NCBI GenBank assembly: GCA_002346305.1
Contig: DDZI01000072.1
Location: forward strand, 4,217 to 36,728
Direction of reading: 5' to 3'
DNA length: 32,512 nucleotides
Origin: Actinobacteria bacterium UBA3012
GTDB taxonomy: Bacteria > Actinomycetota > Actinomycetes > Nanopelagicales > Nanopelagicaceae
Positions within the stretch are counted from its first letter, which is position 1. Every line of letters begins with the position of its first letter. Positions 8,825 through 25,647 of this stretch are shown piece after piece. Below the pieces are notes generated by a model that searched no databases, was not told the DNA's origin, and saw nothing but the letters and a program-made list of their open reading frames with translations. A program made the position numbers and the translations under genes.

Positions 8825-8836
8825 TTAGATTTTTGG

Positions 8837-9604: not shown

Positions 9605-9653
9605 GAAGGGCCCCTTTCAAACGAGTTTAGGCAACCTTACTCGCCTACTTCAA

Positions 9654-10412
9654 TTATTTGGGAATCCGTAACCCTTGCATTCCGCCGTCGATACCCAATG
9701 CCGTTCCAGTAATTGCACTTTGCATTGGGCTGGCCAAAAATGCGATCGAACTGGCGATCTCTTCTGAGGTCACCAAACGACCAGAAGGTTGACGGGCTTC
9801 AAGACGTGCACGTTCTGCAACTGGATCGGCAGCTTGGGCAAGTAAACGTTGCACCCATGGAGTATCTGCAGTTCCTGGATTTACACAGTTGACGCGGATT
9901 TTGTCATTAATTAGATCGCAAGCCATCGCAAGAGTAAGAGTTAACACTGCACCTTTTGAGGCGCTGTAAATCGCCCGGTTTGGAATTCCCGCAGTAGCGG
10001 CGACTGAACACACATTTACTATTGCACCACTTTTACTTTTGCGCATTGAAGGTAGCGCAGTACGTGAAACGCGAGCTAATCCATAAACGTTGATGTTGAA
10101 GACTTTTTCCCAATTCGCGTCAGATTCACTTTCGATTGTTCCGATTGATCCGATTGCAGCATTGTTTATTAGTACGTCGATGACTGAAGTTTTCTTGGCA
10201 ACTTCGGCAAATGCTTTTTCTACAGAGGGGGTGTCACTAACGTCGCACTCAATCCAAGTTGCAACTCCGGTGGCTTCCATCTCACCCTTATTTAAATCAA
10301 GACCGTAGACAGTCGCGCCTCTAGTGTGAAGCAACGTTGCAGTAGCAAGTCCAATTCCCGATCCGGCTCCGGTAACAACTGCGGTCAATCCTTCAAACTC
10401 ACGTGCTGACAT
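9654..10412 (-). CDS. SDR oxidoreductase; by synteny a candidate 2-keto-3-deoxy-L-fuconate 4-dehydrogenase
   Basis: Contains TGAGSGIG, NNAA and YSASKGAV. It lies directly downstream of fucD, as in characterised L-fucose clusters. The substrate assignment is inference. Confidence 0.85.
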   Translation of the reverse strand: MSAREFEGLTAVVTGAGSGIGLATATLLHTRGATVYGLDLNKGEMEATGVATWIECDVSDTPSVEKAFAEVAKKTSVIDVLINNAAIGSIGTIESESDANWEKVFNINVYGLARVSRTALPSMRKSKSGAIVNVCSVAATAGIPNRAIYSASKGAVLTLTLAMACDLINDKIRVNCVNPGTADTPWVQRLLAQAADPVAERARLEARQPSGRLVTSEEIASSIAFLASPMQSAITGTALGIDGGMQGLRIPK

Positions 10413-10460
10413 TGTTTGTGCCTCTCTAGCGGTAGTTCCGGTTTCGGTTCATACTATTTC

Positions 10461-10493
10461 AGTACTTTACTCTCTTATTTAGTTTGTAGTACT
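10461..10493. promoter_or_regulatory. Possible internal operator/promoter spacer upstream of the SDR-gntR pair
   Basis: Two AGTACT palindromic hexamers (10461-10466, 10488-10493) lie in the 85-nt fucD-SDR spacer. The second is embedded in GTAGTAC (GT-N3-AC, FadR-subfamily-like core). Confidence 0.25.
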
Positions 10494-10497
10494 TGCG

Positions 10498-11799
10498 TTA
10501 TACAAAATCTTTCCACTGTGGACCTGTTGGATAAGTGAAATCTACCAAACTGCTCTTGAGCATTTCAGCGCCAGCTCCTGGTTTTGAGGGTGGGAAGTAC
10601 CTTCCATTGCGCACATCTGTTGGAACGGACATATGTTCGTGGAGGTGATCCATATACTCAATGATTCGATCATCATGATGGCCAGAAACTGCCACTGCAT
10701 CGAACATCGCAAAATGTTGGACCATTTCACACAACCCAACTCCGCCTGCGTGAGGACATACTGGAATACTAAATTTTGCGGCCAATAAAACATTTGCCAC
10801 ATTCTCATTTACGCCACCCACTCGTGCTGAGTCGATCTGCATGTAAGACAAACCTTTTAATTGCAAGAATTGTTTAAACATAACTCGGTTTGCACAGGCT
10901 TCGCCGGTTGCAACTTTTACGGGAGCAATACCTTTTGCAATTGCAGCATGGCCTACTACGTCATCTGGATTTGTAGGTTCTTCAACCCAATGCAGATTTA
11001 CATCTCCCAGAGCATTAATCCAATCAATTGCTTCCTGCACATCCCAAACCTGGTTGGCATCAACTGCAAGTTTTACATTTGGACCAACCGCTTCACGAGC
11101 AAGTCTTAGTCGGCGTTTGTCATCTTCTAAGGATGCACCGCATTTCAATTTAATTAGCGTAAATCCATCTGCAACAGCCTCTTTTGCAAGATGTACCATT
11201 TTTTCATCGGTATAGCCAAGCCAACCTGGGGTAGTTGTATAGGCGGGCAATCCTTCAGCAAGCATCTTGGCTTCATTAGCTGCACGATTTGGTTGAACTT
11301 TTTTTAGCATCTCTAAAGCTTCAACGGGAGTTAGTGCATCAGTTAGGTAGCGCCAATCAACTAATTCAACGATCTCTTCAGGAGACATATCTGAAAGCAA
11401 TTTCCAAAGAGGCTTTCCAGCAATTTTAGAAATTAAATCCCAGACGGCAGTAAGAACTGCTCCTGTTGCCATATGGGTTACGCCTTTTTCAGGTCCAAGC
11501 CATCTCACTTGGCTATCTCGAACTAATTCTTGAGCAAGTGCACCCATTGATTTAGAGAGTTGACCAAGATCGCGGCCGACCAAGGTTTGTGCGATTAAAT
11601 CTATAGCGTCACATGCGAGATCGTTTCCACGTCCTAAAGTAAATACAAATCCATTTCCTTCTAGTCCTGGCGTATCTGTTTCTAATGTCAGATACGCCGC
11701 GGAATAATCAGGATCTTTATTCATTGCATCCGAACCATCTAATCCACGAGAAGTAGGAAAACGCACATCCAAAGTTTTAAATCCGGTGATCTTTGCCAT
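10498..11799 (-). CDS. fucD: L-fuconate dehydratase (enolase superfamily, MR subgroup)
   Basis: Near-colinear with the characterised Xanthomonas FucD as I recall it: LDVRFPTSRGLDGSDAMNKDPDYSAAY, RWLGPEKGV, PAYTTTPGWLGYTDEK, IKLKCG, AVDANQ, WVEEP, ATGE, QIDSARVGGVNE and PHAGGVGLCE. The start at 11799 (MAKITGF) aligns with FucD. An in-frame ATG at 11817 is the alternative. Confidence 0.9.
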   Translation of the reverse strand: MAKITGFKTLDVRFPTSRGLDGSDAMNKDPDYSAAYLTLETDTPGLEGNGFVFTLGRGNDLACDAIDLIAQTLVGRDLGQLSKSMGALAQELVRDSQVRWLGPEKGVTHMATGAVLTAVWDLISKIAGKPLWKLLSDMSPEEIVELVDWRYLTDALTPVEALEMLKKVQPNRAANEAKMLAEGLPAYTTTPGWLGYTDEKMVHLAKEAVADGFTLIKLKCGASLEDDKRRLRLAREAVGPNVKLAVDANQVWDVQEAIDWINALGDVNLHWVEEPTNPDDVVGHAAIAKGIAPVKVATGEACANRVMFKQFLQLKGLSYMQIDSARVGGVNENVANVLLAAKFSIPVCPHAGGVGLCEMVQHFAMFDAVAVSGHHDDRIIEYMDHLHEHMSVPTDVRNGRYFPPSKPGAGAEMLKSSLVDFTYPTGPQWKDFV

Positions 11800-11851
11800 T
11801 CGCTTACTTACTTCCATTCTTCAAATTGAATTAGTAGTTCGGGGAATTAAC

Positions 11852-12955
11852 TTAGCCTTTTAAGAACTTTGCCAACTCCTTAGGAGCGCCCTTTTCAGCC
11901 CACAAAGTTTCATAGCCAATACCAGGCCCCTTTGGAGCATGGAGCATGCCGTTTTTATCTATCGCCGGATCTTGAGCCAATTCAATATATGGATTGTCTT
12001 TGATCAAGGATTCGTAATAAGAGTTGTTTTTAATCGCCATACAAAGATGTGCTTGTTCCAAGCCCATTCCATGTACTTCGGCGCGAAGGTGGAAAGTGTC
12101 AGCCAAATGTGCGATACGCATGGCCCCAGTGAAGCCACCACGTAAAAATGTGGAAACGCGAAGTGCGCTTGCGACACCTGTTGCCACGAAATCTCCAGCG
12201 CTCATATGTGCACCCTCGGTTACTTCGCCAAGTAGTAATGGAATTCGTACTCGCTCACCTAGCCACTTGTAAGCAGTGACTGAAAACTCGCGCATTGGCT
12301 CTTCATACCAAAGGAAGTCAGCCTCATCTAATGCATGTCCAAGATAAACAGCATCCATCAAATCAAAACCAGCTGAACCGTCATACATAAGTGCGATATC
12401 CGGCCCAACATGTGCCCGAAGTTTTAGCGATAACTCTGCATCTTTTTTAGCATCACCAAAAGCATGCAACTTAATTGCTTTGTACCCACGGTCTATACAT
12501 TGTGATGCGATATCAAGAAACTCTGGAATTGATGAGTAGGTAACAGTTGATGCGTAAGCCGGAATGGACTCACGATACCCACCGAGCAATTTGTAAACTG
12601 GAAGATTTGCAGCTTTCGCAGCGATATCCCATAGGGCAACATCAATTACGTGTGCCATGTTTGGTGCAAATCTTTCAATGCGATCTAATTCCCAAACGCG
12701 CTCCCAAAGATGTTCGCGCATCAGTGGGTCTTGGCCAATCATTTCTGAACGGAAACGACGGTCAACATAATCTTTCAAAATCACACCACGTGCCGCAGTG
12801 GCAAAGCCAGTGATGCCAGCATCAGTTTCAATTACTAACCAGCCACCAACAGATGGCCCGTCAGACCCGGGAATATTCTTACGCCAAACAAATGGAGGAT
12901 TAACCGCTGGGCGATCTACCAAGATAACTTCGATATTTGTAATTTTCATTTTCAC
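11852..12955 (-). CDS. Mandelate racemase/muconate-lactonizing-enzyme family protein (enolase superfamily), substrate unknown
   Basis: AGGAG lies 5 nt upstream of ATG 12955. Capping domain LWDIAAKAANLPVYKLLGG. Metal-ligand contexts MYDGS, WYEEP and LLLGE. The strand-2 motif reads IKLH rather than KxK (by eye). Confidence 0.85.
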   Translation of the reverse strand: MKMKITNIEVILVDRPAVNPPFVWRKNIPGSDGPSVGGWLVIETDAGITGFATAARGVILKDYVDRRFRSEMIGQDPLMREHLWERVWELDRIERFAPNMAHVIDVALWDIAAKAANLPVYKLLGGYRESIPAYASTVTYSSIPEFLDIASQCIDRGYKAIKLHAFGDAKKDAELSLKLRAHVGPDIALMYDGSAGFDLMDAVYLGHALDEADFLWYEEPMREFSVTAYKWLGERVRIPLLLGEVTEGAHMSAGDFVATGVASALRVSTFLRGGFTGAMRIAHLADTFHLRAEVHGMGLEQAHLCMAIKNNSYYESLIKDNPYIELAQDPAIDKNGMLHAPKGPGIGYETLWAEKGAPKELAKFLKG

Positions 12956-13053
12956 TCCTAAAGTTCCCGAGTTGGCGGATTCAGATAAGTAATTATTACC
13001 AGCAAAGTAGTACGAATTGTCCGAAATTGCTAGAGCGTGATGACTTTGGCTGA

Positions 13054-13860
13054 CTACTCAGGCAGGCGAGAGAGTTTCCACTCTTCCAATTCAGCCAATC
13101 CTTCTTCACTGAGTGGATAGTATTTGCGTAACGCTCCACCTGCAGCCAGGCGAGCCCTACTGAATTCTTCGCTTCCCTCGTAACGTTCAGCAACGTCAAG
13201 AATAATCTCGGCTACATTTATTGGTACAACTACCGCTCCATCATCATCAGCGATAATGATGTCTCCTGGCATGACAAGAACTCCACCTACTGCAATCGGT
13301 ACAGCATATGCCCATGGATAAAGGGGACCTTGTGAAGCGAAGTTTGGAGTAGCACCTAACGTCCAAAGTGGGATCTCCATCTTCTGGATACGCGGCCAGT
13401 CACGGATATAACCATCCACAACTATTCCGACTCCGCCACGACCTGCAAATGAAGTCACCAACATCTCCCCAAGACATCCAGTGTGCTTATCTCCGTAAGC
13501 TTGGACCATCAGGAAATCATTTTTTTGAACATCATCGAGGACTGCCCAAAGAGCTGAGGTATTTTCACCCTCTTCTTGTACTTTTCCTGATGCGATATCT
13601 TCACGTTGTGGCATAAATTGCATGGTTAGCGCGCTACCTACTGCGTGCTGCCCTGTTTTCAACGGGCGAGGACCCGTGATGAAGGTATATCTGATTCCGA
13701 GCATATACATAAGTGCAGATGCAGTTGCTGTACTAACTACTTCTAGGCGTTTGATCATCTCTTCAGGGGCACGAGTGAATCCATGGCCAGTAATTGGCAA
13801 TTTCAGCCCCTTAGGTTTCTCAATCTTTAAGTTGTCATCAAAAAGCTTTGGCTTGGCCAT
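13054..13860 (-). CDS. RraA / HMG-CHA aldolase-like protein (class II pyruvate aldolase / oxaloacetate decarboxylase fold)
   Basis: GCLGEMLVTSFAGRGGVGIVVDGYIRDWPRI..IPLWTLGATPN...VPIAVGGVLVMPGDIIIADDDGAVVVP is the RraA-like signature. At 268 aa it has N- and C-terminal extensions relative to minimal RraA proteins. Confidence 0.8.
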   Translation of the reverse strand: MAKPKLFDDNLKIEKPKGLKLPITGHGFTRAPEEMIKRLEVVSTATASALMYMLGIRYTFITGPRPLKTGQHAVGSALTMQFMPQREDIASGKVQEEGENTSALWAVLDDVQKNDFLMVQAYGDKHTGCLGEMLVTSFAGRGGVGIVVDGYIRDWPRIQKMEIPLWTLGATPNFASQGPLYPWAYAVPIAVGGVLVMPGDIIIADDDGAVVVPINVAEIILDVAERYEGSEEFSRARLAAGGALRKYYPLSEEGLAELEEWKLSRLPE

Positions 13861-13890
13861 TTACTGCACCTTTCTGTTGATTGGGTTTAC

Positions 13891-15114
13891 TTACATCCAG
13901 TTACGTGCAGCCGGCTTTACTTCTGCGATTGGGTGCATGATTTCTGCATGATAATTGAAATCTAAATAAGGGTATTTCTCTTCGAGGTTGTCAGCTAATT
14001 TGATTCCAAAGCCAGGAACTTGCGGTACAGCAAGCTTTCCTTTCGCAGTTGGAAGTCCATCAGCCAAAATTGCATCTCGTAGTGGACCTTGAGCGAAATT
14101 AACTTCAACCTGACCGTAAAGCGGTGCACCGGCCATGATGTGCGCATGCATAATTGCCATGGCTCCATTGTGCCATCCATGTGGATCACATGAAATTCCA
14201 TAGGTAGCTGCCATTTCCATCACTGCTTTCATTTCAGTAATACCCATCCAGCCTGCATCTGGGTGCAACATCTGCAGCGCACCTTGTTCAAAATATGGAC
14301 GGTATTGATCGAGTGATTGCATAACTTCGCCACCGCTGATGGTTAAATCTGGAGCAACTTTCTGCAACTCCTTAAAGCCATCAATATTGGTAATTACGAT
14401 GGCATCTTCAAACCAAATAAAGCCGAGATCATTTAGACCTTTGGCAACCTTTAATGCTTCTTCAAGGCTTAAGCGTGCATTTCCATCTACTGCTAAGCGG
14501 AAATCTGGACCTACTGCATCGCGAAGTTTTTTCATGTGCTTGATGAAGCGCTCTGGAGTTACACCATCAAATGCCCATTGGGTTCCCATACGAATCTTTG
14601 AGGTGGTGTATCCAAGATTTTTATAGCCGACAACTTCGTCAATTAATTGATCAGGATTAATACTCCAGTCGTAATTAACGCCACCGGATGCATATGCATC
14701 AACCTCTGTTACTTTTGGATCTGCACCAAGTAAAACGGCAACTGTCTTTCCAGTTATCTGGCCAAGAATGTCCCAGAATGCACAATCAAGACCAGCCACA
14801 GCGCCATCATGTGCCCAATTCACTCCACGTGGACGAGCAACGCGCCATGCTTCGGAAAGTGAACGACCAACCATGATTCGCGAAAACCAATCAATCCAAG
14901 ATTTAATAATTGGGGGACCACCATAAGAACAAACTTCACCATAACCAATCTGTCCTTGATCGGTTTCAACAACCACCATGTAAACGTCAGCCTTAACTGC
15001 ACGAATTACATGAGTACCCCAGGCTTTATCCGTATCGTGTAAACGAGAGAGCAAAATGCTCTTAACTGATTTAATTTTTACATCTGGATAATTCTCCTGA
15101 ATTAGCGTGTTCAA
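13891..15114 (-). CDS. Mandelate racemase/muconate-lactonizing-enzyme family protein (enolase superfamily), probable acid-sugar dehydratase
   Basis: TTG start at 15114 preceded by AGGAAGG at 7-nt spacing. Contains AFWDILGQITGKTVAVLLG, AVDGN, WFED, ISGGE, HPDAGWMG and DPHGW (His-Asp dyad context). The strand-2 motif reads SKIRMG (by eye). Confidence 0.85.
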   Translation of the reverse strand: MNTLIQENYPDVKIKSVKSILLSRLHDTDKAWGTHVIRAVKADVYMVVVETDQGQIGYGEVCSYGGPPIIKSWIDWFSRIMVGRSLSEAWRVARPRGVNWAHDGAVAGLDCAFWDILGQITGKTVAVLLGADPKVTEVDAYASGGVNYDWSINPDQLIDEVVGYKNLGYTTSKIRMGTQWAFDGVTPERFIKHMKKLRDAVGPDFRLAVDGNARLSLEEALKVAKGLNDLGFIWFEDAIVITNIDGFKELQKVAPDLTISGGEVMQSLDQYRPYFEQGALQMLHPDAGWMGITEMKAVMEMAATYGISCDPHGWHNGAMAIMHAHIMAGAPLYGQVEVNFAQGPLRDAILADGLPTAKGKLAVPQVPGFGIKLADNLEEKYPYLDFNYHAEIMHPIAEVKPAARNWM

Positions 15115-15292: not shown

Positions 15293-16141
15293 ATGCGGAT
15301 AGATTCTCATCATCATTTATGGGATTTAGATATTGCTCCACGAGGATGGCTGGCTGGTGATGTGCTTGCGCCACTTAATCGCACATTTTCAATGGATGAT
15401 TTTTATGCTGAGCGAGCCTCAGCGAAGATAGATAAATCAATACTTGTGCAAACACTTTCTGATTACGAGGAAATGAAAGAATTTTTTAATGTAGCCGAAA
15501 ATCATGAGTCAATGGTTGGAGTTGTTGCGTGGATCGATACTAGTAGATCAGATTGCTTCGAAAAACTTGAAACTTATTTGGATTTGCCTGGATCAAACAA
15601 GTTAGTAGGCATTCGCGATGGAGCACAAGGACGAACTGACACAGAGTGGCTTGTAAGTGAACAAGTTGTAAAAAATATAACTCAGTTAGTGCAAGAGGGG
15701 CTAACTTTTGATTTACTGGTAGATCCACCGCATTTGGTGGCAAGTGCAAAATTAGTAAAACAATGCCCAGACACAACTTTCATTTTAGATCACATTGGAA
15801 AACCTAATATTGGCAAAGGTGATCCCGGAGAATTAAAAGAGTGGTCCAACCTTATTGAAGATTTAGCCGCTAATCAGAATGTCTCATGCAAAGTATCCGG
15901 AATGGTAACTGAGGCAAATTGGCAAGCGTGGAAAAATGATGATTTCAAAAGATACTTTGATGTTGTCCTAAATTCATTCGGTATCGATCGAATCATGTAC
16001 GGATCAGATTGGCCAGTTTGTAAATTGGCAGCATCGTATGAGCAGGTAGCTAACTTGGCAGAATATTTAGTAGCAGATTTGAGCGAAAGCGAAAAGGAAA
16101 AGTTCTGGAGCAAAAACGCGATTAATGCATACGGAATTTAG
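15293..16141 (+). CDS. Amidohydrolase_2 (COG3618-type) sugar lactonase, candidate L-fucono-1,5-lactonase
   Basis: RIDSHHHLWD at the N-terminus, ILDHIGKP and MYGSDWPV near the C-terminus. GGTGG lies 6 nt upstream of the ATG. The substrate is inferred from fucD proximity. Confidence 0.85.
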   Translation: MRIDSHHHLWDLDIAPRGWLAGDVLAPLNRTFSMDDFYAERASAKIDKSILVQTLSDYEEMKEFFNVAENHESMVGVVAWIDTSRSDCFEKLETYLDLPGSNKLVGIRDGAQGRTDTEWLVSEQVVKNITQLVQEGLTFDLLVDPPHLVASAKLVKQCPDTTFILDHIGKPNIGKGDPGELKEWSNLIEDLAANQNVSCKVSGMVTEANWQAWKNDDFKRYFDVVLNSFGIDRIMYGSDWPVCKLAASYEQVANLAEYLVADLSESEKEKFWSKNAINAYGI

Positions 16142-16186: not shown

Positions 16187-18229
16187 ATGACAGCTAAGAA
16201 TTTTGGGAAGATCAGCAACTACGCAAACCCAATCTTGCGCGACCACACTTACCTGCGAACAATGCCTGAATGGGCAGTATTGCAAAGGCGCTTATTTGAG
16301 GTTATGGATCAAGGCTGGAGAGTTTTTGACGAAAAGTTTTGCAACCCAGATGGGTCGTTGATTTTCAATCAGAGCATGGACCATTCTCGTGATGGGGCAG
16401 ATGATTTTTACGAAGCGTTTTTTAACTGGCCAGCGCTTTATATGCTTGGCGGTAGCGAAGACATTTTAAGTGCTGCCAAGAAATCTTGGAAAGGCGTTAC
16501 AGAACAATTAACTAAGCTTGGTTTAGTTAAAGATCAATATGAACGTGGATATGACTGGTTCCACCAGGGTGAATCAATGATCTTTTTTTATGCGATCTGT
16601 GCTGCCGATCCCAAAGATCAAGAGTTTAAGAAATTAGCTAAACAATTCGCAGATCTATATGCCGGTAAAAACTCACCAAATTATGTTGCAGACAAAAACA
16701 TTATCCCTGCCCCACATAACGGCTCTGACGGATTGCGACCAGGACTGGGTCAGGAAAACCAAGATGGATATCCTGCAGGTGACATCAATTCGGTTATGAA
16801 GCCATATGGATTGCCATTGCACTACGTAGAAGGTATTAATGAGTGGGACGACTTGGCAGTTAAAGAAAAATCTATACTTATGGCTTCCGAAATGGAACGC
16901 GTCCTAGGCTATGGAGATGTCGCTGTAAATCTCGCTGTAACTTCTTTGATTGCTAACCAATGGCTTTATGACAATGAGCAAAGCTCCGCCGATTGGATAA
17001 ATAAGTACATTCAAGGATGGGTAGATCGAGCAGAAGCCAATGACGGAATTATTCCTGACAACGTTGCTCCTAACGGCGAAGTTGGTGGATTGCACGATGG
17101 TCGATGGTTTGGTGGACATTATGGATGGACGTGGCCGCATGGTTTTTACAGCGTCTCACATGCAACTTTGGTCGCAGGTTTAAACGCAATTTTAGTATCA
17201 GGAGACAAGAGCGTATTGCAGCTAACCAGAACAGTTCTCCAAAAAGTTAAATCTCTTGGTCGCGTCGGCACGATTATCGAAACTGAAAGCAGTTTGCAAG
17301 CCGGAACTGAAAGATTTGGCGTTCCAGTTGATAAGCCTGTGGTGCTTGTTCCTTATCGTTATGGAAAAGATGGTTGGTTTGATTATTCGCCAATGATTAT
17401 GAGTCTTCCAATGTGGCTTTGGTACTTATCTATGAGTGATGAGGACGCCAAATTTATGGAGGAATTAATAGAGGGTATCGCTCCATTTGGCAGTTACTTG
17501 TCACCAACTCGAAACAAAGAAGAAGCCGGTCATGAGGCACCTTGGTTCTCGTACCTGCACGGAAAAAATGAGAATTATCCAACTACTGCTTTAGCTATGG
17601 CTTTAGGTCAAGTGGCTCGCAGAATGCGATTAATGGAGACCGAAGTAATAAGTGGACCTGGTGGAGTCAACATTCATTTCTGGCAAGAGGTGCAACCGAT
17701 TGTTACTGAAATCTTGACTCAGTTAACTTTGGGTGCACCACAAGTTCTTTATAACGGCGGGTTACAGGTGGCACGACTTAGATATTTTGATGCAGATGCT
17801 GGTCGGATCGGCTTACCGAATGAAGTTGCGGCATTGGTAACCAAAATAACTAAGGATGAAACCTGGGTTGAATTGGTAAACACCAGCATCACCCAAACTC
17901 GTAGAGTGGTCCTTCTTGCTGGAGCATTTGGTGAGCATCAATTTGAGTCGGTTACTCAACTATCCGAAAGTACCGACCCAAAGCATAGCGATCGCTTTGT
18001 TGATGGATACGAGCAAGCTATTTGTACCGGCGATAAAGGAGCACCGCTCACTTATCCTGGCTCAAGACGAGCATATGGATCGCCAGAACTACACGAAGAA
18101 AGTGTCACCACTGAGGTGACCAAGAATTCTTTTGCTGTAGAATTACCTGCTAACTCTTCAGCGAAATTGAGAATTAAAATGACGTTAAATGCTAATAAAC
18201 CAAAGTTTATTGGGCTTGCTGATCTTTAA
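16187..18229 (+). CDS. Large uncharacterised cytoplasmic protein (680 aa); possibly an (alpha/alpha)-barrel plus C-terminal beta-sandwich glycosidase/lyase-like architecture
   Basis: Long uninterrupted ORF with an AAAGG RBS. It has no signal peptide and no TM segments. Trp/Gly-rich motifs GYDWFHQGE and DGRWFGGHYGWTWPHG, and a C-terminal tail SFAVELPANSSAKLRIKM typical of beta-sandwich domains. No family was recognised. Confidence 0.75.
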   Translation: MTAKNFGKISNYANPILRDHTYLRTMPEWAVLQRRLFEVMDQGWRVFDEKFCNPDGSLIFNQSMDHSRDGADDFYEAFFNWPALYMLGGSEDILSAAKKSWKGVTEQLTKLGLVKDQYERGYDWFHQGESMIFFYAICAADPKDQEFKKLAKQFADLYAGKNSPNYVADKNIIPAPHNGSDGLRPGLGQENQDGYPAGDINSVMKPYGLPLHYVEGINEWDDLAVKEKSILMASEMERVLGYGDVAVNLAVTSLIANQWLYDNEQSSADWINKYIQGWVDRAEANDGIIPDNVAPNGEVGGLHDGRWFGGHYGWTWPHGFYSVSHATLVAGLNAILVSGDKSVLQLTRTVLQKVKSLGRVGTIIETESSLQAGTERFGVPVDKPVVLVPYRYGKDGWFDYSPMIMSLPMWLWYLSMSDEDAKFMEELIEGIAPFGSYLSPTRNKEEAGHEAPWFSYLHGKNENYPTTALAMALGQVARRMRLMETEVISGPGGVNIHFWQEVQPIVTEILTQLTLGAPQVLYNGGLQVARLRYFDADAGRIGLPNEVAALVTKITKDETWVELVNTSITQTRRVVLLAGAFGEHQFESVTQLSESTDPKHSDRFVDGYEQAICTGDKGAPLTYPGSRRAYGSPELHEESVTTEVTKNSFAVELPANSSAKLRIKMTLNANKPKFIGLADL

Positions 18230-18900
18230 TGGCAAATATTGTTCGGCATCAATTTAAGGCAAAAATCAAGGAAGGTTCTGTAGAGCGTTTTGCGGAATCA
18301 TTGCAGGATAAAAAAGCCGAGATTCATAATCAACTTGCTGTCATGGGAGTTCACTTTTTTAAAGTTTTTCAATTCAGCGATTTGCTTTTTATTTATCTTG
18401 AATCTGAGACCACTCTTGCAAAATTTGATTTACCTTCTAGTTTTGGTGGAATGCTCATGGATTGGCCGGGGGAGAGTGGCAACAGAAAATTTGTTTTGAT
18501 GCTGGACATCTTTCACGATGCGATTCCACGCTCTGAATCTGTCTGGCGGGATTCCGGATCACCTCGCGAAAGCCTTGGCTCGATAGTTTATCTACGTCCA
18601 GAAAAGTATTGCAGTTATGCTTTTTACCATTTTCAACTTCAAGAAGAAGGAATACGCAAATTCAATAAGCACTATGTAATTGGTGCCCATGAAAATTGCC
18701 TATTTTCATACCAAGAATTACCTGCAGTTATAGACAGTACAAATCATGACCGAGTCTTGGATACAAATGTAAGTCCGGGAAATTGGACTCAATTAATGGG
18801 CGAGCATTTTCGACCATGGCCAGAAGGTCTAGATATTGAAAAACCTTGGAAGAGCATGGAAGAGATATTTTCATTTTCTAGTAACTCTGGGGCCCTTTAA
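18229..18900 (+). CDS. Two-domain protein with tandem L-rhamnose-mutarotase-like (dimeric alpha/beta-barrel) repeats
   Basis: TAATG overlap with the 680-aa gene. Domain 2 (SIVYLRPEKYCSYAFYHF...LFSYQEL...MEEIFSF) parallels the bona fide RhaM at 25324 (YGSVIGIPKADWAEYERYH...LFSYFEY...IPEVFHVD). Domain 1 is more diverged (..LLFIYLESE...LMLDIFH). Confidence 0.65.
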   Translation: MANIVRHQFKAKIKEGSVERFAESLQDKKAEIHNQLAVMGVHFFKVFQFSDLLFIYLESETTLAKFDLPSSFGGMLMDWPGESGNRKFVLMLDIFHDAIPRSESVWRDSGSPRESLGSIVYLRPEKYCSYAFYHFQLQEEGIRKFNKHYVIGAHENCLFSYQELPAVIDSTNHDRVLDTNVSPGNWTQLMGEHFRPWPEGLDIEKPWKSMEEIFSFSSNSGAL

Positions 18901-19130: not shown

Positions 19131-21833
19131 ATGAGCGCGCAGTTAATCCATCCATTTACTTTTGGGGATCGTACTCAATCTGATTTGCTGGGTGGAAAAG
19201 GCGCAAACCTTGCTGAAATGGTTCGGATGGGTTTGCCAGTGCCTCCGGGTTTCACGATTACAACCCAAGCATGTCGCGAATATTTAGCTTCAGGAAAAAT
19301 GCCTGCGGGACTAATCTCAGAAATCAATGATTCATTAAATGAGTTAGAAAAAAGTTTAGATAAAAAATTTGGCGATCCCACTAAACCATTACTCGTCTCT
19401 GTTCGTTCTGGGGCGAAATTTTCAATGCCTGGAATGATGGAAACTGTTCTTAATGTTGGAATGACCCCAGAAGTTGCCGAGGGTTTAGCAAAGATATCCG
19501 GAAATGAAAAATTCGCATGGGACTCTTATCGCCGCTTTATAGATATGTATGGGCGCATAGTTTGTGATGTTCCACCTGCAGAGTTTCATCAAATAGAAAA
19601 TCGAATTCTTGAGTCTCATTCTGTCAAAAATATTCAAGAATTAGATGTTGCTGGGCTACAAGCGTTGGCTGCCGCCTTTATTAAAGAAATTGAGATTGTT
19701 ACAGGCAAGCCATTTCCAACTGATCCACGTGAGCATTTGATTAGTTCAGTAGAGGCTGTCTTTCATTCATGGAACTCTGAGCGTGCTCAACTTTACCGTC
19801 GTCGCGAGCGTATCTCTTCAGATCTTGGGACTGCAGTAAATATTCAATCAATGGTTTTTGGAAACTTAAGTGATGACTCTGGAACGGGCGTTGCTTTTAC
19901 TCGCGATCCTGCATCTGGTGAAGTCGGAAGTTACGGTGATTACTTAGACCGTGCGCAAGGTGAGGATGTTGTTGCTGGAATCCGTAACACCATGTCGCTC
20001 GAGGATATGGCGAAAAAAGAACCAGTCGTTCACGCCGAACTTGAAAAAGTTATGGGTTTACTTGAAGACCATTATCGAGACCTGTGTGATATTGAATTTA
20101 CAGTTGAGCGTGGAAAGTTATGGATTCTACAAACTCGCGTTGGTAAGCGAACTGCTGAAGCCGCATTCCGTATTGCGACTCAATTAGTTGATGAAGGCAA
20201 GATCACCATGGATGAGGCGCTATCTCGCACATCTGGTGATCAATTAGTCCAATTGATGTTTCCGCAGTTTGATTTGAGTGGTTCTATCAAGGAGATTGCG
20301 CGTGGAATTCCAGCCTCTCCGGGTGCTGCAGTGGGAGAAGTTGTTTTTGATTCTCGCCGAGCGTTTGATTTGGCTAGAAGCGGCAAAAAAGTGATTTTAG
20401 TAAGACGAGAAACCAGCCCTGATGATTTAGTAGGAATGGTGGCAGCAGAAGGAATTTTGACCAGCCGCGGAGGTAAAACTTCACACGCAGCTGTAGTCGC
20501 ACGCGGAATGGGTAAGACTGCCGTTTGCGGTACTGAAAGCATTTCAGTCGATGAACGTGCATCCCTTTTTACTGTTGGAAGCCTCACCGTTTATGAAGGT
20601 GAAACAATTTCAATTGATGGCACTACAGGAGCGGTTTACACTGGAGTCATTCCAGTTATTGCATCACCAGTAACGGCTTACTTAGAAGGTCGTTTGTCTG
20701 CAGGAGCCGACGAAGCATCACCAGTTGTTAAAGCAGTTGATCGGATTTTGAAACATGCTGATCAAATCCGAGCCTTACGAGTTAGGGCAAATGCCGATAC
20801 TCCAGAAGACGCAGTACGCGCGCGAATTCTTGGTGCAGAAGGTGTTGGCTTATGTCGCACGGAGCATATGTTCTTAGGCCCTCGTCGCATTTTTGTTGAG
20901 CGATTAGTTTTAGCAGAAAATGAAGATGTGCAACGTGGTGTAATCGCTGAGATGGAACCGCTTCAACGCGCTGATTTTGTCGGCATCATGATGGCGATGT
21001 CTGGATTACCAGTAACTATTCGCTTATTAGATCCACCGCTTCACGAGTTCTTGCCAGATTTAGCTTCTCTTACCGGAGAGATGGCACGTGCTGAAGCACT
21101 CGGCACTGAAGTTTCTACTAGAGATCAAGCAATTTTTGCTGCGGTAAGACGTTTGCATGAATCGAATCCAATGTTAGGTCTACGTGGTGTTCGTCTCGGA
21201 ATTTTAATTCCAGAGTTGTTTAAAATGCAGGTTCGTGCACTTGTCCACGCTTGTCTTGAAGTTAAACAACTTGGTCATAATCCAAAACCAGAGATAATGA
21301 TTCCATTGGTAGCCACCCAACGTGAACTTCTGTATTTGCGCGAAACACTAGAGGTTGAAATCGCCGAAACTCTTAAAGGCACTGGCCAGCAGATAGATAT
21401 TCCAATTGGAACCATGATTGAAACACCTAGAGCTGCTATTACGGCAACTCGATTGGGAGATTACGCGGATTTCTTCTCATTCGGAACTAACGATCTAACT
21501 CAATTAACTTGGGCGTTTAGTCGTGATGATGTGGAATCTACCTTCTTGCCAAGGTATCTAGATCTTGAATTATTGCCATTTAATCCATTTGAATCTCTTG
21601 ATCAAGATGGAGTTGGCCTTCTGGTCAAGATTGCAACAGAACAAGCGCGAGCATTACGACCTGATTTCAAATTAGGTGTGTGTGGTGAGCATGGTGGCGA
21701 TCCAAGAAGTATTCACTTCTTCCACGGTTTAGGTTTAGATTATGTATCTTGCTCACCATTCCGAGTTCCGGTTGCAAGATTGGAATCGGGTCGTGCACAA
21801 GTAATTAGTTCTTCAACTTCAAGCACCGCTTGA
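19131..21833 (+). CDS. ppdK: Pyruvate, phosphate dikinase
   Basis: Contains GGKGANLAEM, the phospho-His loop TSRGGKTSHAAVVARGMGK, GLCRTEHMF, FFSFGTNDLTQ and VSCSPFRVPVARL. Length is 900 aa and AAGGGAG RBS precedes the start. Confidence 0.97.
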   Translation: MSAQLIHPFTFGDRTQSDLLGGKGANLAEMVRMGLPVPPGFTITTQACREYLASGKMPAGLISEINDSLNELEKSLDKKFGDPTKPLLVSVRSGAKFSMPGMMETVLNVGMTPEVAEGLAKISGNEKFAWDSYRRFIDMYGRIVCDVPPAEFHQIENRILESHSVKNIQELDVAGLQALAAAFIKEIEIVTGKPFPTDPREHLISSVEAVFHSWNSERAQLYRRRERISSDLGTAVNIQSMVFGNLSDDSGTGVAFTRDPASGEVGSYGDYLDRAQGEDVVAGIRNTMSLEDMAKKEPVVHAELEKVMGLLEDHYRDLCDIEFTVERGKLWILQTRVGKRTAEAAFRIATQLVDEGKITMDEALSRTSGDQLVQLMFPQFDLSGSIKEIARGIPASPGAAVGEVVFDSRRAFDLARSGKKVILVRRETSPDDLVGMVAAEGILTSRGGKTSHAAVVARGMGKTAVCGTESISVDERASLFTVGSLTVYEGETISIDGTTGAVYTGVIPVIASPVTAYLEGRLSAGADEASPVVKAVDRILKHADQIRALRVRANADTPEDAVRARILGAEGVGLCRTEHMFLGPRRIFVERLVLAENEDVQRGVIAEMEPLQRADFVGIMMAMSGLPVTIRLLDPPLHEFLPDLASLTGEMARAEALGTEVSTRDQAIFAAVRRLHESNPMLGLRGVRLGILIPELFKMQVRALVHACLEVKQLGHNPKPEIMIPLVATQRELLYLRETLEVEIAETLKGTGQQIDIPIGTMIETPRAAITATRLGDYADFFSFGTNDLTQLTWAFSRDDVESTFLPRYLDLELLPFNPFESLDQDGVGLLVKIATEQARALRPDFKLGVCGEHGGDPRSIHFFHGLGLDYVSCSPFRVPVARLESGRAQVISSSTSSTA

Positions 21834-21865: not shown

Positions 21866-22849
21866 ATGCCACGCCATAGTGAGTTAGTAAAGATTGAAAG
21901 AACTGGTCTTGAAGTAACTAAACTTTCATTAGGTACAGCCCCACTTGGTGGATTATTTACCTCAGTTCCAGAAGCCGATTCTGACGGTGTGATTGCCGCG
22001 GCATTTGCTGCAGATATTAATTTTTTTGATACCGCACCGCTTTACGGTTCGGGACGCTCAGAGGTTCGCTTAGGCCGTGGTTTGAATGCAGCAAAGCGTC
22101 CCTATGTTCTATCCACCAAAGTCGGACGCGTTTTAAATCCAGTTTCTGGTGTTTCAAATGCTGGTGGCTTAGCAGGCTTTGCTGATGCGGATACTTCTGT
22201 AGAGCCAGTATTTGATTACTCAAGAGCTGGAGTTCGTAGATCATTTGAGGAGAGCTTAAAGCGATTAAATGTAGACAGAATTGATGTTGCATTAATTCAT
22301 GATGCAGATGATCGAATTGAAGAAGCAATCAAGTACGCATACCCCGCACTAGAAGAAATGCGCGCAGAGGGCATGGTCAGTACCATCGGAGTCGGAATGA
22401 ATTACTGTCCACCAACGATTAAAGCTGTTGTTGAAACTGACATTGACATAGTTTTAATAGCTGGACGTTACTCGTTGCTTGATCAGTCATCACAGGACCA
22501 ACTATTCAAAGAGACAATGAAACGAAAAGTTTCAGTAATGATTGGTGGAGTTTACAACTCGGGAATTTTGGCTAATCCAGTGGCTGGTGCCACTTATTTC
22601 TATGCACCTGCTTCAGATGAGGTTATTGCCAAAGCCCAAAAGATCAGAGATTTACTGGCAACTTTTAATGTCTCTCTAACTGCCGCAGCTATCCAATTTC
22701 CACTACGCCACCCAGCGGTCACGACCGTTCTTACTGGTTCGCGCAGTTCAAAAGAGCTACTTGCAAATATCGCTGATTTTGATTCAGAAGTACCAGCCGA
22801 GGCTTGGGAAGCACTAGAGAAGGCCGGATTAATCCCACCTATTGACTGA
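21866..22849 (+). CDS. Aldo/keto reductase, D-threo-aldose (L-fucose) 1-dehydrogenase-like
   Basis: GLEVTKLSLGTAPLGGLF, FFDTAPLYGSGRSEVRLGRGL and VLSTKVGR match the AKR subgroup that includes L-fucose/D-arabinose dehydrogenases. Substrate specificity is inferred. Confidence 0.88.
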   Translation: MPRHSELVKIERTGLEVTKLSLGTAPLGGLFTSVPEADSDGVIAAAFAADINFFDTAPLYGSGRSEVRLGRGLNAAKRPYVLSTKVGRVLNPVSGVSNAGGLAGFADADTSVEPVFDYSRAGVRRSFEESLKRLNVDRIDVALIHDADDRIEEAIKYAYPALEEMRAEGMVSTIGVGMNYCPPTIKAVVETDIDIVLIAGRYSLLDQSSQDQLFKETMKRKVSVMIGGVYNSGILANPVAGATYFYAPASDEVIAKAQKIRDLLATFNVSLTAAAIQFPLRHPAVTTVLTGSRSSKELLANIADFDSEVPAEAWEALEKAGLIPPID

Positions 22850-22876: not shown

Positions 22877-24010
22877 ATGTCTAGCGAGGTCAGATTAACG
22901 GGGATGACTTGGGAGCATGTTCGCGGACATGGCTGTTTAGTTGCTTCAGGTCCTTTTTTGCAGAGTCACCTTGGCATAACCGTAGATTGGACCGCGCGAT
23001 CCTTACTGGCTTTTGGTGATCAGAAAATTGAGGAGTTCTACCAAGATTTCGATTTAATGGTGATTGATTATCCACATATTCCAGATGCGGTTGCTGCAGG
23101 AACAGTTTTACCTTTTGAAGATTTTGTATCAGCAGCAGATTTAGATCAACTTGCTCAAGAAAGCGTCGGCGGATCTCATCACTCTTATTTATTTAGAAAT
23201 AAACATTGGGCTTTGGCATTAGATGCCGCATCACAAGTAAGTGCTTACCGTCCTGATCGAGCAGATAGCGCTCCTCTAACTTGGGATGATGCGAAAGAGA
23301 TTGGCAAAGCGGGTAAATTGCTGTGGCCCTACAAGCCGGTCGATGCTTTTAGTACCTTTGCAACTTTATGCGCGCAATTAGGTGCACCTCTTGCTGGCAG
23401 TAAAAATTTCATTGATAACCAGATCGCAGCGCAAGCGTTAGATCTAATGATTGAATTTACACACCTCGTTCCAGATTTTTGTGCGACCTTTAATCCGATT
23501 GACACCGCAGAAGCGCTCGCCGATGATGGACCTTTTAGTCATGCAATCGCACTTTATGGTTATACAAATTACGGAAGAGTCGGATTCCGCAAAAATTTAC
23601 TTTCTTACGATGATATTCCATCATTTGACGGACAGTCTAGTGGCGCCTGTTTAGGTGGCACTGGAATCGCTGTTTCGAGTGCAACAAAAAATCCTGAAGC
23701 AGCATTCAAAGCAGCGCTGACTTTAGCCAAAGGAGATGTGCAGTCCACTGTTTACACGAAAGCTGGTGGACAGCCAGGAAATTTAAGGGCTTGGAAGAGC
23801 CGTGAATGTAATGAGATAACAAATTACTTCTTTAGAAACACATTAAGAACTCTTGAGCGAGCATGGATAAGACCACATGTGATTGGTTGGCCTGATATTC
23901 AAATGGAAATTTCGAAGATTGTTCACCCTTCTTTAGTAGCAAAGAAATTAACCGGAAAGGAAGTTGGTTTAATTGCTGAACTTTATGACCGACATGCGGT
24001 GATCGAATGA
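22877..24010 (+). CDS. Solute-binding-protein-fold (SBP family 1-like) protein lacking any signal peptide or lipobox
   Basis: SBP-like landmarks: [51 protein letters not shown] and [14 protein letters not shown]. The N-terminus [17 protein letters not shown] has no hydrophobic h-region, and the in-frame upstream sequence is closed. ATGA overlap with the downstream MaoC gene. Confidence 0.65.
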
Positions 24011-24454: not shown

Positions 24455-25300
24455 ATGAGTAGCAATTCACAAATGATCGATACACATCAGCATCTTTGGA
24501 TTATTAGTGAAAGAGAGTATTCCTGGCTCAAGCCAGAGTACGGTGTAATTTACGACGATTTTGGACCTGAATTAATAGAGCCACAACTTGCCCCGGCTGG
24601 TGTAACTGGAACAGTCATGGTCCAATCCGCCGACACATATGCAGATACGTTCTACATGCTAGATGTTGCCGCAAAACATAAATTTGTTAAAGGAGTAGTT
24701 GGTTGGGTTCCACTAAACCGTCCTGATGAAGCTAGCGCCGCTCTAGATGTATTAGTTAAGAATCCGGTCTTTAAAGGGGTGCGAAATTTAATTCATGATT
24801 ACCCGGATCCGAAGTGGATATTAAAGCCAGAGGTTCTCGAGGGTATTGGACATCTTGCTTCACGTAATTTGGTTATGGATTTTGTTACTGTCAATACTTA
24901 TCATATGTCTTGCCTTCCAGTAATTGCTGAAAAGTATCCAAATCTAAAAATAGTGATTGACCATCTTTCAAAACCAGGAATTAAAAACAAGGAATGGGAG
25001 CCATGGGCTAGTGATATGGCGAAGGCCGCAAAGTATCCAAATATTTATGCAAAAATTTCAGGATTAAATACTGCTTCTGACTCCAATTGGTCATTTAAAG
25101 ATTGGATTCCATATGTGGATCATGTAGTTTCAATATTTGGCTCTAACCGAGTCATGCTTGGTGGGGATTGGCCAGTGATTTTACTAGCCAACGACTATAA
25201 AACTGTATGGAAAGCACAACAAGATGTAATTGCGCATCTTTCGCAAGATCAACAAGATGACATTAAATATCGCACAGCAACAAAGTTCTACTCACTCTAA
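24455..25300 (+). CDS. Amidohydrolase_2 (COG3618-type) lactonase, second paralogue; candidate L-rhamnono-/aldono-lactonase
   Basis: Contains IDTHQHLW, VIDHLSKPG and MLGGDWPV. GAGAGGAAAAG RBS. Adjacent to rhaM. Confidence 0.85.
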   Translation: MSSNSQMIDTHQHLWIISEREYSWLKPEYGVIYDDFGPELIEPQLAPAGVTGTVMVQSADTYADTFYMLDVAAKHKFVKGVVGWVPLNRPDEASAALDVLVKNPVFKGVRNLIHDYPDPKWILKPEVLEGIGHLASRNLVMDFVTVNTYHMSCLPVIAEKYPNLKIVIDHLSKPGIKNKEWEPWASDMAKAAKYPNIYAKISGLNTASDSNWSFKDWIPYVDHVVSIFGSNRVMLGGDWPVILLANDYKTVWKAQQDVIAHLSQDQQDDIKYRTATKFYSL

Positions 25301-25323: not shown

Positions 25324-25647
25324 ATGAAACGTTACGGATCAGTTATTGGAATTCCAAAAGCAGATTGGGCAGAGTACGAGCGTTATCACGCAGATGTATG
25401 GCCAGAGGTCCTAAAAACTATCTACGATTGCAATATTAGAAATTACTCAATTTATCGTTATGGTGAATTGCTTTTCTCATACTTCGAATATATTGGTTCC
25501 GATTTTGAGGCAGATAGTGCAAAAATGGCTGAGGATCCTAAGACTCAAGAGTGGTGGGATGTAATGAAGCCAATGCAACGTCCAGTTGCTGAATGCTCTG
25601 GAGACGAATGGTGGCATTCAATACCTGAGGTTTTTCACGTCGATTAA
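25324..25647 (+). CDS. rhaM: L-rhamnose mutarotase
   Basis: 107 aa, MKRYGSVIGIPKADWAEYERYHADVWPEVLKTIYDCNIRNYSIYRYGELLFSYFEY...WWDVMKPMQ...EVFHVD, the RhaM (DUF718) pattern. Confidence 0.9.
   Translation: MKRYGSVIGIPKADWAEYERYHADVWPEVLKTIYDCNIRNYSIYRYGELLFSYFEYIGSDFEADSAKMAEDPKTQEWWDVMKPMQRPVAECSGDEWWHSIPEVFHVD

Follow-up and report, generated by a model that had tools for sequence, protein, structure and literature searches.

The subject of this analysis is a pair of overlapping genes in a 32,512-nucleotide (nt) stretch of the genome of Actinobacteria bacterium UBA3012 (contig DDZI01000072.1, positions 4,217 to 36,728), the whole of which is called the window below. The upstream gene encodes a 680-residue protein of the family DUF8034, and the downstream gene a 223-residue protein made of two tandem RhaM-like halves. 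Tentatively, we favour reading the 680-residue protein as a cytoplasmic glycoside-cleaving enzyme that acts on an imported fucose-type oligosaccharide and has a dedicated mutarotase encoded next to it; DUF8034 as a whole is a good candidate for a new class of carbohydrate-active enzyme. In the proposed scheme, a small fucose-type (6-deoxy-hexose or L-galacto-configured) oligosaccharide would be brought in by a CUT1-type ABC importer and cleaved in the cytoplasm by the 680-residue protein to give a reducing sugar as one anomer, and the coupled 223-residue protein, a putative mutarotase, would interconvert the anomers so that the sugar could enter an oxidative route. That route would run, in a presumed order, from an aldo/keto reductase (AKR) acting as dehydrogenase through an Amidohydro_2 lactonase, an enolase-type dehydratase and an RraA-like aldolase to pyruvate, which may then be converted to phosphoenolpyruvate by pyruvate, phosphate dikinase (PPDK). 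A glycan-active enzyme is argued for by the six-hairpin fold, by a carboxylate core held in common with a secreted branch found in polysaccharide utilization loci (PULs), by the position of the gene after a CUT1 importer, by neighbours of the endo-fucanase and GH95 types (GH, glycoside hydrolase family) and by recurrent coupling to mutarotases of two folds.

The 680-residue protein had been described as an orphan in the first-pass annotation, which was made from the letters alone. This description did not hold: a word-indexed search returned 1,289 homologues, nearly all named 'hypothetical protein' and every one tagged PF26099 (Pfam DUF8034), among them two database proteins that are 100% identical to it (P0001 and P0002, tagged PF26099.1). 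When 1.84 billion representatives of clusters made at 50% identity were searched exhaustively with a profile of the family, 1,777 clusters reached E ≤ 1e-3, and 355 reached E ≤ 1e-30. The PF26099 assignment rests on these precomputed tags and on 47–100% full-length identity to tagged proteins; a local scan of the protein against NCBIfam and a Pfam copy without the PF26099 model gave no match, and a Pfam scan of 31 DUF8034 members at E ≤ 10 likewise gave none. Members occur in Actinomycetota, Bacteroidota, Planctomycetota and other phyla, and the closest relatives (76–97% identity) are from metagenome-assembled genomes of Candidatus Nanopelagicaceae/Planktophila, the freshwater acI lineage; the GC content of the window is 43.5%. 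The family is catalogued but uncharacterized, with no characterized member and no solved structure: no PDB chain was matched by a single-sequence search (phmmer) or by the DUF8034 family profile, and no paper mentioning DUF8034 or PF26099 was found in the searchable literature. As annotated earlier, the protein has no signal peptide and no transmembrane segment (maximum Kyte–Doolittle value over 19 residues, 1.35). The remark that it is rich in Trp and Gly applies to motifs such as DGRWFGGHYGWTWPHG, which lies at residue 304 and is nearly invariant within the clade, and not to the overall composition (Trp 2.6%, Gly 8.8%). One homologue (P0024) bears the UniRef name 'Linalool dehydratase/isomerase domain-containing'. 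Identity with that family (Ldi, PF18566) was rejected, as P0024 and all other members were without a Pfam match at E ≤ 10 and linalool dehydratase/isomerase lay outside the Foldseek top 50.

An AlphaFold2 model was built from a 31-sequence alignment (pLDDT 84.6, pTM 0.89). It consists of a helical (alpha/alpha)6 barrel at about residues 28–515 and, towards the C terminus, a beta-sandwich at 531–666, the arrangement that the first-pass annotation had guessed, and in a Foldseek comparison with the PDB all matches with a probability near 1.0 were (alpha/alpha)6 sugar enzymes. The matches were remote throughout (best E 1e-4, identity ≤ 12%). The best E-values belonged to cellobiose 2-epimerases (3vw5, 1e-4), in an AGE superfamily range of 1e-4 to 4e-3 that also took in mannose isomerase 5x32 (TM-score on the target 0.56) and YihS (2rgk and 7ag4); the GH88 unsaturated glucuronyl hydrolase 2fv0 (0.52 on the target, E 1.2e-3), GH127 (E 1.3e-3), GH76 and GH9 were also among the matches. 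As modelled, the 680-residue protein has the six-hairpin (alpha/alpha)6 barrel with remote similarity to known examples; the predicted fold class is familiar, yet DUF8034 lies far from every solved structure.

Distant full-length members of the family, at about 30% identity, mostly carry a signal peptide or a lipoprotein box; in a crude signal-peptide test 96 of 118 distant-branch proteins were positive, and none of 115 in the clade of the window. Residues D72, D73, E76, D123, H126, E129, D244, N248, Y274, R281 and R348 are common to both branches and constitute a candidate catalytic core of the whole family. Because its carboxylate-rich part, D72, D73, E76, D123, H126, E129 and D244, is kept in both, the chemistry is probably common to the cytoplasmic and secreted branches. 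A PUL of a Cyclobacteriaceae member has the order SusC, SusD, GH28, GH28, GH95, DUF8034, BNR propeller, sulfatase, AXE1, GHL15, sulfatase, and in a Saprospiraceae member the neighbours of secreted DUF8034 are GH95, the same BNR propeller and two each of beta-helix proteins and sulfatases. Distant members (P0354, P0297, P0254 and P0214) also carry fused domains: one has a C-terminal GH32 catalytic domain (GH32 N-domain, 68.6 bits), one an N-terminal FGE-sulfatase domain, another a T9SS Por_Secre_tail and another MORN repeats. The occurrence of the secreted branch in Bacteroidota PULs with GH95, GH28, beta-helix proteins and sulfatases, together with the shared acidic core, gives independent support to the idea of a carbohydrate-active enzyme.

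Two further observations were made on the secreted branch. The BNR/Sortilin-Vps10-type beta-propeller gene (328 residues) lies directly 3' of DUF8034 in both Bacteroidota PULs, and the two may form a second conserved pairing. In locus L092, from a 9.2-Mb genome, secreted DUF8034 is found, in the region 2951–9772, near two GFO/IDH/MocA oxidoreductase genes, AP_endonuc_2 genes (sugar-isomerase-like TIM barrels), two short-chain dehydrogenases/reductases (SDRs) and an HpcH/HpaI aldolase, with no dehydratase nearby.

The surroundings of DUF8034 were surveyed in 80 genome loci, 6 from acI and 74 from other Actinomycetota (including Microbacteriaceae, Kribbella, Nonomuraea, Streptomyces, Isoptericola and Promicromonospora), and neighbours were counted by targeted tblastn. 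The gene lies directly 3' of a CUT1 importer in 70 of the 80 loci, and the binding protein of this importer is nearest, weakly, to solved oligosaccharide binders. An RraA-like gene was found in 74 loci, the permeases in 72–74, the solute-binding protein (SBP) in 65, Amidohydro_2 in 58, AKR in 47, GH141 in 31 and an enolase-type dehydratase in 3, two of them acI; the last was seen essentially only where a double-RhaM gene is also present, and in the loci sampled the two genes occur jointly or are both missing. Outside acI the order SBP, permease, permease, DUF8034, RraA-like is conserved. It continues in one of two ways: with AKR and Amidohydro_2, to which GntR is added in some operons and a single-domain rhaM in five loci, or with a GH141-type beta-helix gene, Amidohydro_2 or AKR then lying upstream in divergent orientation. 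Actinobacterial DUF8034 operons are flanked by GH141-type beta-helix genes and GH95, and pectinesterase, GH28 and Pel9A-like beta-helix proteins are encoded near some of them. Characterized GH141 enzymes cut in endo fashion, and the oligosaccharides that they set free contain fucose: BT1002 frees the disaccharide 2-O-Me-Xyl-alpha1,3-L-Fuc from rhamnogalacturonan II (RG-II), and others are endo-fucanases (PMC10154630, PMC12786026). The locus in the window bears a fucose signature of its own, in an L-fucose-mutarotase-type RhaM and fuconolactonase-like Amidohydro_2 genes.

The RraA-like protein shares about 60% identity with PDB entry 5x15, named 'Putative transferase', and when it was aligned with the HMG/CHA aldolase 3noj its IRD fell on VRD, with the Arg-Asp pair kept. 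We take 5x15 to be RraAS2 (sco7163) of Streptomyces coelicolor. RraAS2 has been reported as an inhibitor of RNase ES (PMC10126417). The fixed place in a sugar operon and the retained aldolase Arg-Asp pair suggest that the RraA-like group has a primarily metabolic role. The operon context, with an RraA-like partner and no dehydratase, is new to the searchable literature.

For the 223-residue protein, the C-terminal half matched Pfam rhaM (PF05336) at residues 119–215 with 31.9 bits against a cut-off of 23.4. The N-terminal half gave matches below that cut-off (13.7–15.4 bits) in 3 of 10 members, in register and at profile positions 1–56. Comparison of the two halves by hhalign gave E 0.0026 (probability 11%) with the shared motifs in register, and in a joint alignment each half (N, 1–111; C, about 112–223) fitted a genuine RhaM template end to end. 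The AlphaFold2 model was moderate (pLDDT 65.7), with a confident beta-alpha-alpha-beta-beta unit in the N-half, and for this reason the Foldseek matches were weak: the full length retrieved equally long single-chain proteins in which two dimeric alpha+beta barrels are fused in tandem (E 1e-3 to 1e-2), whilst single halves retrieved RhaM-family mutarotases. A PDB profile search with the double-RhaM family matched no chain. The tandem RhaM-like architecture given in the first-pass annotation is thereby borne out, above threshold for the C-half and more weakly for the N-half. Both halves keep LF-Y-E. Y-x3-H (Y130 and H134), which is invariant in 28 family members and aligns with the Y-x3-H of RhaM and fucose mutarotase, is kept only in the C-half; the N-half is without Y..H and retains DIFH, whose final His, part of a (D/E)(I/V)FH motif, the C-half has lost. 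The Tyr and His of Y-x3-H are presumably the catalytic residues of YiiL. We read the protein as a single-chain RhaM pseudo-dimer whose halves appear to have degenerated in complementary ways and which probably has one functional site.

Both open reading frames (ORFs) were recovered as first annotated, and the TAATG overlap between them was confirmed: the TAA stop (18227–18229) and the ATG (18229–18231) have a single A in common in the junction GATCTTTAATGGCA. GAAAGG lies upstream of the first ATG, and no Shine–Dalgarno-like purine run was found upstream of the second. As stop and start share one base and no Shine–Dalgarno-like sequence precedes the second gene, the junction suggests coupling by termination–reinitiation. 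A scan of the + strand between the two genes gave no promoter or terminator match and was uninformative, because fewer matches were obtained than in shuffled sequence. An overlap of 1 nt or 4 nt is retained by the pair in related loci (L003–L006, L084–L086 and L095). At the sequence level the genes thus have the features of a translationally coupled pair, namely the overlap, a second gene with no ribosome-binding site of its own and an arrangement kept in relatives.

The double-RhaM gene lies directly 3' of DUF8034 in all six acI loci, one of them cut by a contig end. A second survey was anchored on the double-RhaM gene and covered 80 metagenome loci. In the 27 loci with relatives at ≥ 41% identity, DUF8034 ends a few nt upstream in 16, lies 1.8 kb off in 1, and is missing despite adequate flank in 6; 4 were uninformative. 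Of the 22 metagenome loci counted as informative, 16 keep the two genes adjacent, at identities from 96% to 41%. Among the 53 loci with relatives at ≤ 39% identity, 1 is adjacent to DUF8034 and about 20 are clearly without it; these distant genes lie among CUT1 permeases, AraC regulators, SDRs, GH28, GDSL esterases and GH88/105, contexts of cytoplasmic sugar processing. In one distant lineage a 29–31%-identical double RhaM adjoins DUF8034 in inverted order (AKR, enolase, double RhaM, DUF8034). Agromyces ramosus carries a pair of DUF8034 paralogues separated by 4 kb; one belongs to a standard RraA/AKR/lactonase operon, and the start of the second is overlapped by 4 nt by the gene of an unrelated GalM-type aldose 1-epimerase. 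DUF8034 is thus coupled to mutarotases of two unrelated folds, double RhaM in acI and GalM-type in Agromyces. A functional link is argued for by the inverted-order adjacency at 29–31% identity and by the GalM coupling, and both strengthen the earlier reasoning that a mutarotase partner would make sense for the 680-residue enzyme. The DUF8034/double-RhaM pairing is real, recurrent and lineage-restricted. Universal pairing was rejected, being missing from 74 of 80 genome loci and from most distant double-RhaM relatives; conserved pairing across genomes, the absence of which the first-pass annotation had named as counting against its view, accordingly held only in part.

Some variation was seen among the closer double-RhaM loci. 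Seven of them (L103, L109, L112, L113, L121, L122 and L104) have 48–66%-identical double-RhaM genes without direct adjacency to DUF8034; in L104 an insertion separates the genes and DUF8034 lies about 1.8 kb upstream, and in L109 and L121 two 300-residue ORFs are found upstream of double RhaM on the opposite strand.

Several results weigh against a glycoside-cleaving enzyme with a dedicated mutarotase. No sequence or profile match of DUF8034 to any CAZy-linked Pfam family or PDB chain was obtained; neither glycosidase activity nor GH family membership, both entertained in the first-pass annotation, is established. The Foldseek similarity is weak (E ≥ 1e-4, TM-score ≤ 0.61 on the target), and its top matches are epimerases, not hydrolases. 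The double-RhaM gene was found within 8 kb of DUF8034 in none of the 74 non-acI loci, the pairing being limited to a few lineages, and the tightest partner of DUF8034 is the RraA-like gene, often with a 4-nt overlap, and not a sugar dehydrogenase or a mutarotase. Invariant positions that the secreted branch lacks number 66 in the cytoplasmic clade and include four His (H177, H318, K444, E446, H449 and H497 are among these clade-specific invariants), and on that account the clade may have gained a new function. Lastly, no recognisable sugar-acid dehydratase is encoded in the non-acI operons; this missing step in a conserved actinobacterial operon is an unexplained pathway hole, and a plain glycosidase leaves it so. 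Taken together, the earlier interpretation is supported in its fold, its tandem RhaM, its carbohydrate-active idea and its mutarotase logic, and falls short on the orphan status, the proof of a glycosidase and the generality of the pairing.

The pathway hole would be filled if DUF8034 were itself the missing dehydratase, acting on an aldonate or aldonolactone in an oxidative route for deoxy-sugars that is widespread in actinobacteria. This is the main alternative, one that the first-pass annotation did not raise and that we consider unlikely. The sugar would be converted to a lactone by the AKR, to an aldonate by Amidohydro_2, to a 2-keto-3-deoxy acid by DUF8034 and to pyruvate and an aldehyde by the RraA-like protein, and the double RhaM would act on anomers or ring forms of the sugar or the keto-deoxy acid. 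The RraA-like gene is indeed the next gene 3' of DUF8034 in 72 of the 74 non-acI loci, often overlapping it (the 2 exceptions are contig ends); transporter, AKR, lactonase and aldolase are all present, and DUF8034 is the sole unassigned enzyme of these operons. An enolase-family gene was found in 1 of the 74 loci, and no ILVD/EDD or UxaA family member in the five operons with Pfam tags. The clade-specific invariants would suit a new small-molecule site, and one UniRef name points to linalool dehydratase/isomerase; hydration and dehydration are within the chemistry of (alpha/alpha)6 barrels, GH88/105 and linalool dehydratase being examples. 2-Keto-3-deoxy acids are described as cyclizing and having anomers (PMC11199699; for the anomerase YhcH, PMC8141875). 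Against this, the acI loci hold an enolase-type dehydratase beside the RraA-like gene and yet retain DUF8034, and the secreted PUL branch has the same acidic core; a periplasmic or secreted aldonate dehydratase makes little sense. We know of no sugar-acid dehydratase with an (alpha/alpha)6 fold. No metal-binding or Fe-S motif was identified in DUF8034, the local Pfam scan lacked an Ldi match even at E ≤ 10, and the 680-residue protein had no Pfam or NCBIfam match to the sugar-acid dehydratase families MR_MLE, ILVD_EDD, GD_AH and UxuA, so that a dehydratase here would be of a new type; the dehydratase serving the non-acI operons could also be encoded elsewhere in the genome. The broader proposal, in which DUF8034 is a new (alpha/alpha)6 sugar-acid dehydratase, the RraAS2 group is primarily a metabolic aldolase and double RhaM is an anomerase of sugars or keto-deoxy acids, is rather unlikely as a whole.

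The structural matches to the AGE superfamily raise the question of an isomerase or epimerase acting on a free mono- or disaccharide, with the mutarotase supplying the anomer as YihR does for YihS. Isomerase and mutarotase pairs occur in sugar catabolism, and the coupling of DUF8034 to mutarotases of two folds mirrors them; the best Foldseek E-values were those of cellobiose 2-epimerases, 5x32 and YihS were matched as well, and the clade of the window is cytoplasmic. AGE enzymes use a His pair, however, and the family-wide core of DUF8034 is carboxylate-rich with H126 as the single His conserved across both branches. No sequence signal to PF07221 or any AGE family was obtained, AGE enzymes are without the C-terminal beta-sandwich, the distant branch is mostly secreted among glycosidases and sulfatases, and an oxidative pathway has no obvious need for an isomerase, all of which makes the idea improbable. 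A GH88/GH105-like unsaturated-uronide hydrolase or exolyase yielding a 4-deoxy-5-keto-uronate is more doubtful still and strikes us as quite improbable. Its product would already be a 2-keto-3-deoxy-type acid needing no classical dehydratase, which would explain operons without one; AKR and lactonase would oxidize it, and the RraA-like protein would play the part of FlDet, that of a keto-deoxy-glucarate dehydratase/decarboxylase. KDGR dehydratase/decarboxylase activity is on record for an RraA-family enzyme (PMC8563752), 2fv0 is among the better Foldseek matches, and the pectinesterase, GH28 and Pel9A-like genes near some loci are in keeping with it. But no polysaccharide lyase family was confidently identified beside DUF8034, no PF07470 match was found, the RraA-like partner retains the aldolase Arg-Asp pair, the locus has a fucose/rhamnose-type signature (fucose-mutarotase RhaM, fuconolactonase-like genes, GH95, GH141) and a mutarotase has no obvious role for an unsaturated uronate. 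We give hardly any weight to the last explanation, that the pair is not a functional unit, its overlap being operon compaction in a streamlined acI genome and its proteins belonging to different sugar branches. The acI genomes are compact, many neighbours in the window overlap or abut, and each gene frequently occurs without the other, as the two surveys showed; even so, adjacency is kept from 96% to 41% identity, survives an inversion of gene order in the distant lineage and is paralleled by the unrelated mutarotase coupled to a DUF8034 paralogue in Agromyces.

Whichever activity applies, DUF8034 has a central place in a sugar operon that is very conserved among actinobacteria and lies inside marine and freshwater PULs, near GH95 and GH141. 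If it is a glycosidase, it would found a new glycoside hydrolase-type family for the turnover of fucose-rich glycans (RG-II-like pectins, fucoidans) and may cover linkages left uncleaved by known enzyme sets; if it is a dehydratase, it would be a new dehydratase fold and a new enzyme type. A metabolic role is indicated for the RraA-like group, of which RraAS2, reported as an RNase inhibitor, is apparently a member, and the double RhaM would be a clean natural case of a homodimeric mutarotase fused to a pseudo-dimer with complementary degeneration.

Table 1. Positions of the features discussed, in the window unless a related locus is named.
Feature	Position	Strand	Remarks
680-residue DUF8034 ORF	16187..18229	+	ATG start
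223-residue tandem RhaM-like ORF	18229..18900	+	ATG start
Stop/start junction TTTAATG	18225..18231	+	one base common to TAA and ATG
RraA-like class II pyruvate-aldolase-type protein	13054..13860	-	Arg-Asp pair kept; 5x15, 285 bits; 3noj, 64 bits
Enolase-superfamily acid-sugar dehydratase	13891..15114	-	divergent; best PDB match 5olc 'galactonate dehydratase', 138 bits
Amidohydro_2 lactonase, fuconolactonase-like	15293..16141	+	Pfam, 137.9 bits; first gene of + unit, 45 nt 5' of DUF8034
PPDK	19131..21833	+	TIGR01828, 1195 bits; full-length, between double-RhaM gene and AKR
AKR, candidate sugar 1-dehydrogenase	21866..22849	+	Pfam
CUT1-type ABC SBP	22877..24010	+	Pfam
Second Amidohydro_2 lactonase paralogue, fuconolactonase-like	24455..25300	+	Pfam, NCBIfam
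Single-domain RhaM, L-fucose-mutarotase type	25324..25647	+	95 bits (E 2.7e-26) to 7byu
BNR/Sortilin-Vps10-type propeller gene	L091 11978-12964		
BNR/Sortilin-Vps10-type propeller gene	L093 11950-12936		
Agromyces ramosus DUF8034 paralogue	L081 2854-4812	-	4 kb from the other paralogue
Agromyces ramosus DUF8034 paralogue	L081 8066-10962	+	4 kb from the other paralogue

In the acI arrangement, the RraA-like gene and the enolase dehydratase are divergent from Amidohydro_2, DUF8034 and double RhaM, which are followed by PPDK, AKR and SBP (Table 1); PPDK occupies the same position in L003. The gene upstream of DUF8034 had been called a lactonase, which agrees with its Pfam match to Amidohydro_2; its best NCBIfam match, L-fucono-1,5-lactonase, scored 193.8 bits, under the cut-off of 400. 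The genuine RhaM that the first-pass annotation had placed at 25324 was found there and is of the L-fucose-mutarotase type, its score to the Acidovorax L-fucose mutarotase 7byu comparing with about 25 bits to L-rhamnose mutarotases. For the CUT1 SBP no PDB relative was found. An assignment of the enolase gene as a bona fide FucD was unsupported, its best PDB match being the 'galactonate dehydratase' 5olc.

The window as a whole forms a densely packed island of sugar-acid catabolism. Its stretches 559–15114 and 25678–32168 encode three SDRs, three enolase-family proteins, two FAH hydrolases, an SMP-30 lactonase, a PfkB kinase, a KDPG aldolase, an FMN-dependent dehydrogenase, a 2-hydroxyacid dehydrogenase, a GFO/IDH/MocA oxidoreductase, a MaoC hydratase and a CaiB-type CoA-transferase, along with GntR and LacI regulators; a weak Peptidase_U32 match at 4586–5506 seems out of place among them. 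ORFs 2384–3004, 2833–3765 and 3726–4550 (+) overlap by 172 and 40 nt, and the real starts of two SDR genes are probably downstream of the ORF starts, as their SDR Pfam matches begin at residues 65 and 29. A DUF5107 and TPR protein of 590 residues with a TTG start is encoded at 5764–7536 (+), and its true start may be upstream because the Pfam match begins at profile position 34. A second DUF5107 and TPR protein (1022 residues) lies at 11959–15027 of L081, beside the second Agromyces DUF8034 paralogue, so that DUF5107/TPR is another uncharacterized family recurring in DUF8034 loci.

Published non-phosphorylative L-fucose and L-rhamnose pathways consist of a dehydrogenase, an Amidohydro_2 lactonase, an enolase dehydratase and either an aldolase or a 4-dehydrogenase with a hydrolase. 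The window shares with them an AKR, two lactonases, enolase dehydratases, SDRs, FAH hydrolases, an aldolase-type protein and a fucose-type mutarotase. It differs in that its aldolase candidate is RraA-like and not DHDPS or HpcH, its enolase member is no close relative of FucD, and DUF8034 and double RhaM are extra components without a counterpart in those pathways.

Among known enzymes, the GH95 and GH139 alpha-L-fucosidases resemble DUF8034 in their (alpha/alpha)6 catalytic toroid. They act on fucose or L-galactose, and GH95 turns up repeatedly beside DUF8034 in both Actinomycetota and Bacteroidota. A GH139 fucosidase structure was solved in 2025 and resembles GH95; the common layout is a 15-strand N-terminal beta-sandwich, an (alpha/alpha)6 toroid and a C-terminal sandwich, with Asn as base and Glu as acid (PMC12282258). 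DUF8034 is without the sandwich before the toroid, its helices beginning at residue 28, and identity with GH95/GH139 was rejected on this ground and because both lay outside the Foldseek top 50; for GH139 there was also no PDB sequence or profile match, although structures have been reported. GH127 HypBA1, GH88/GH105 and GH76 likewise have the (alpha/alpha)6 barrel, with an appended beta-sandwich in GH127, and are similar in their cytoplasmic and secreted exo-enzyme lifestyles, their places in PULs and sugar operons and their carboxylate-rich conserved cores. They differ from DUF8034 in showing no sequence or profile similarity to it and fold matches of E ≥ 1e-3 at ≤ 12% identity. Membership of GH88/GH105 (PF07470) was not supported, the 31 members having no Pfam match at E ≤ 10 and the fold match being weak. 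The same was true of GH127 (PF07944, DUF1680), for which no hidden Markov model match was obtained; the Cys/Zn site of that family (Cys nucleophile, Cys3-Glu zinc) is absent from DUF8034, and C138, the sole Cys that is invariant in the clade of the window, is replaced by Gly in 66% of secreted-branch members. The AGE enzymes (cellobiose 2-epimerase, mannose isomerase, YihS) gave the best Foldseek E-values, and the clade of the window, cytoplasmic and mutarotase-coupled, may be compared with YihS/YihR. By comparison, DUF8034 has about 250 more residues and a beta-sandwich in addition, shows no Pfam match and no conserved His pair, and, unlike the AGE superfamily, has a distant branch that is mostly secreted.

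The C-half of the 223-residue protein shares Y-x3-H and LF-Y-E with RhaM/YiiL and the RhaM-type L-fucose mutarotases (1x8d, 2qlw, 6hhn and 7byu). In size (about 220 residues) and in fused two-barrel architecture it resembles ABM-type proteins such as PenE (9kdp), FN1347 (3mcs) and the anthrone-oxidase-like 5f9p, which were its best full-length Foldseek matches and are cofactor-free oxygenases of polyketide pathways; it is set apart from them by its RhaM sequence signal and its sugar catabolism context. Known RhaM proteins are homodimers of about 105 residues, whereas here the two halves are fused in one chain.

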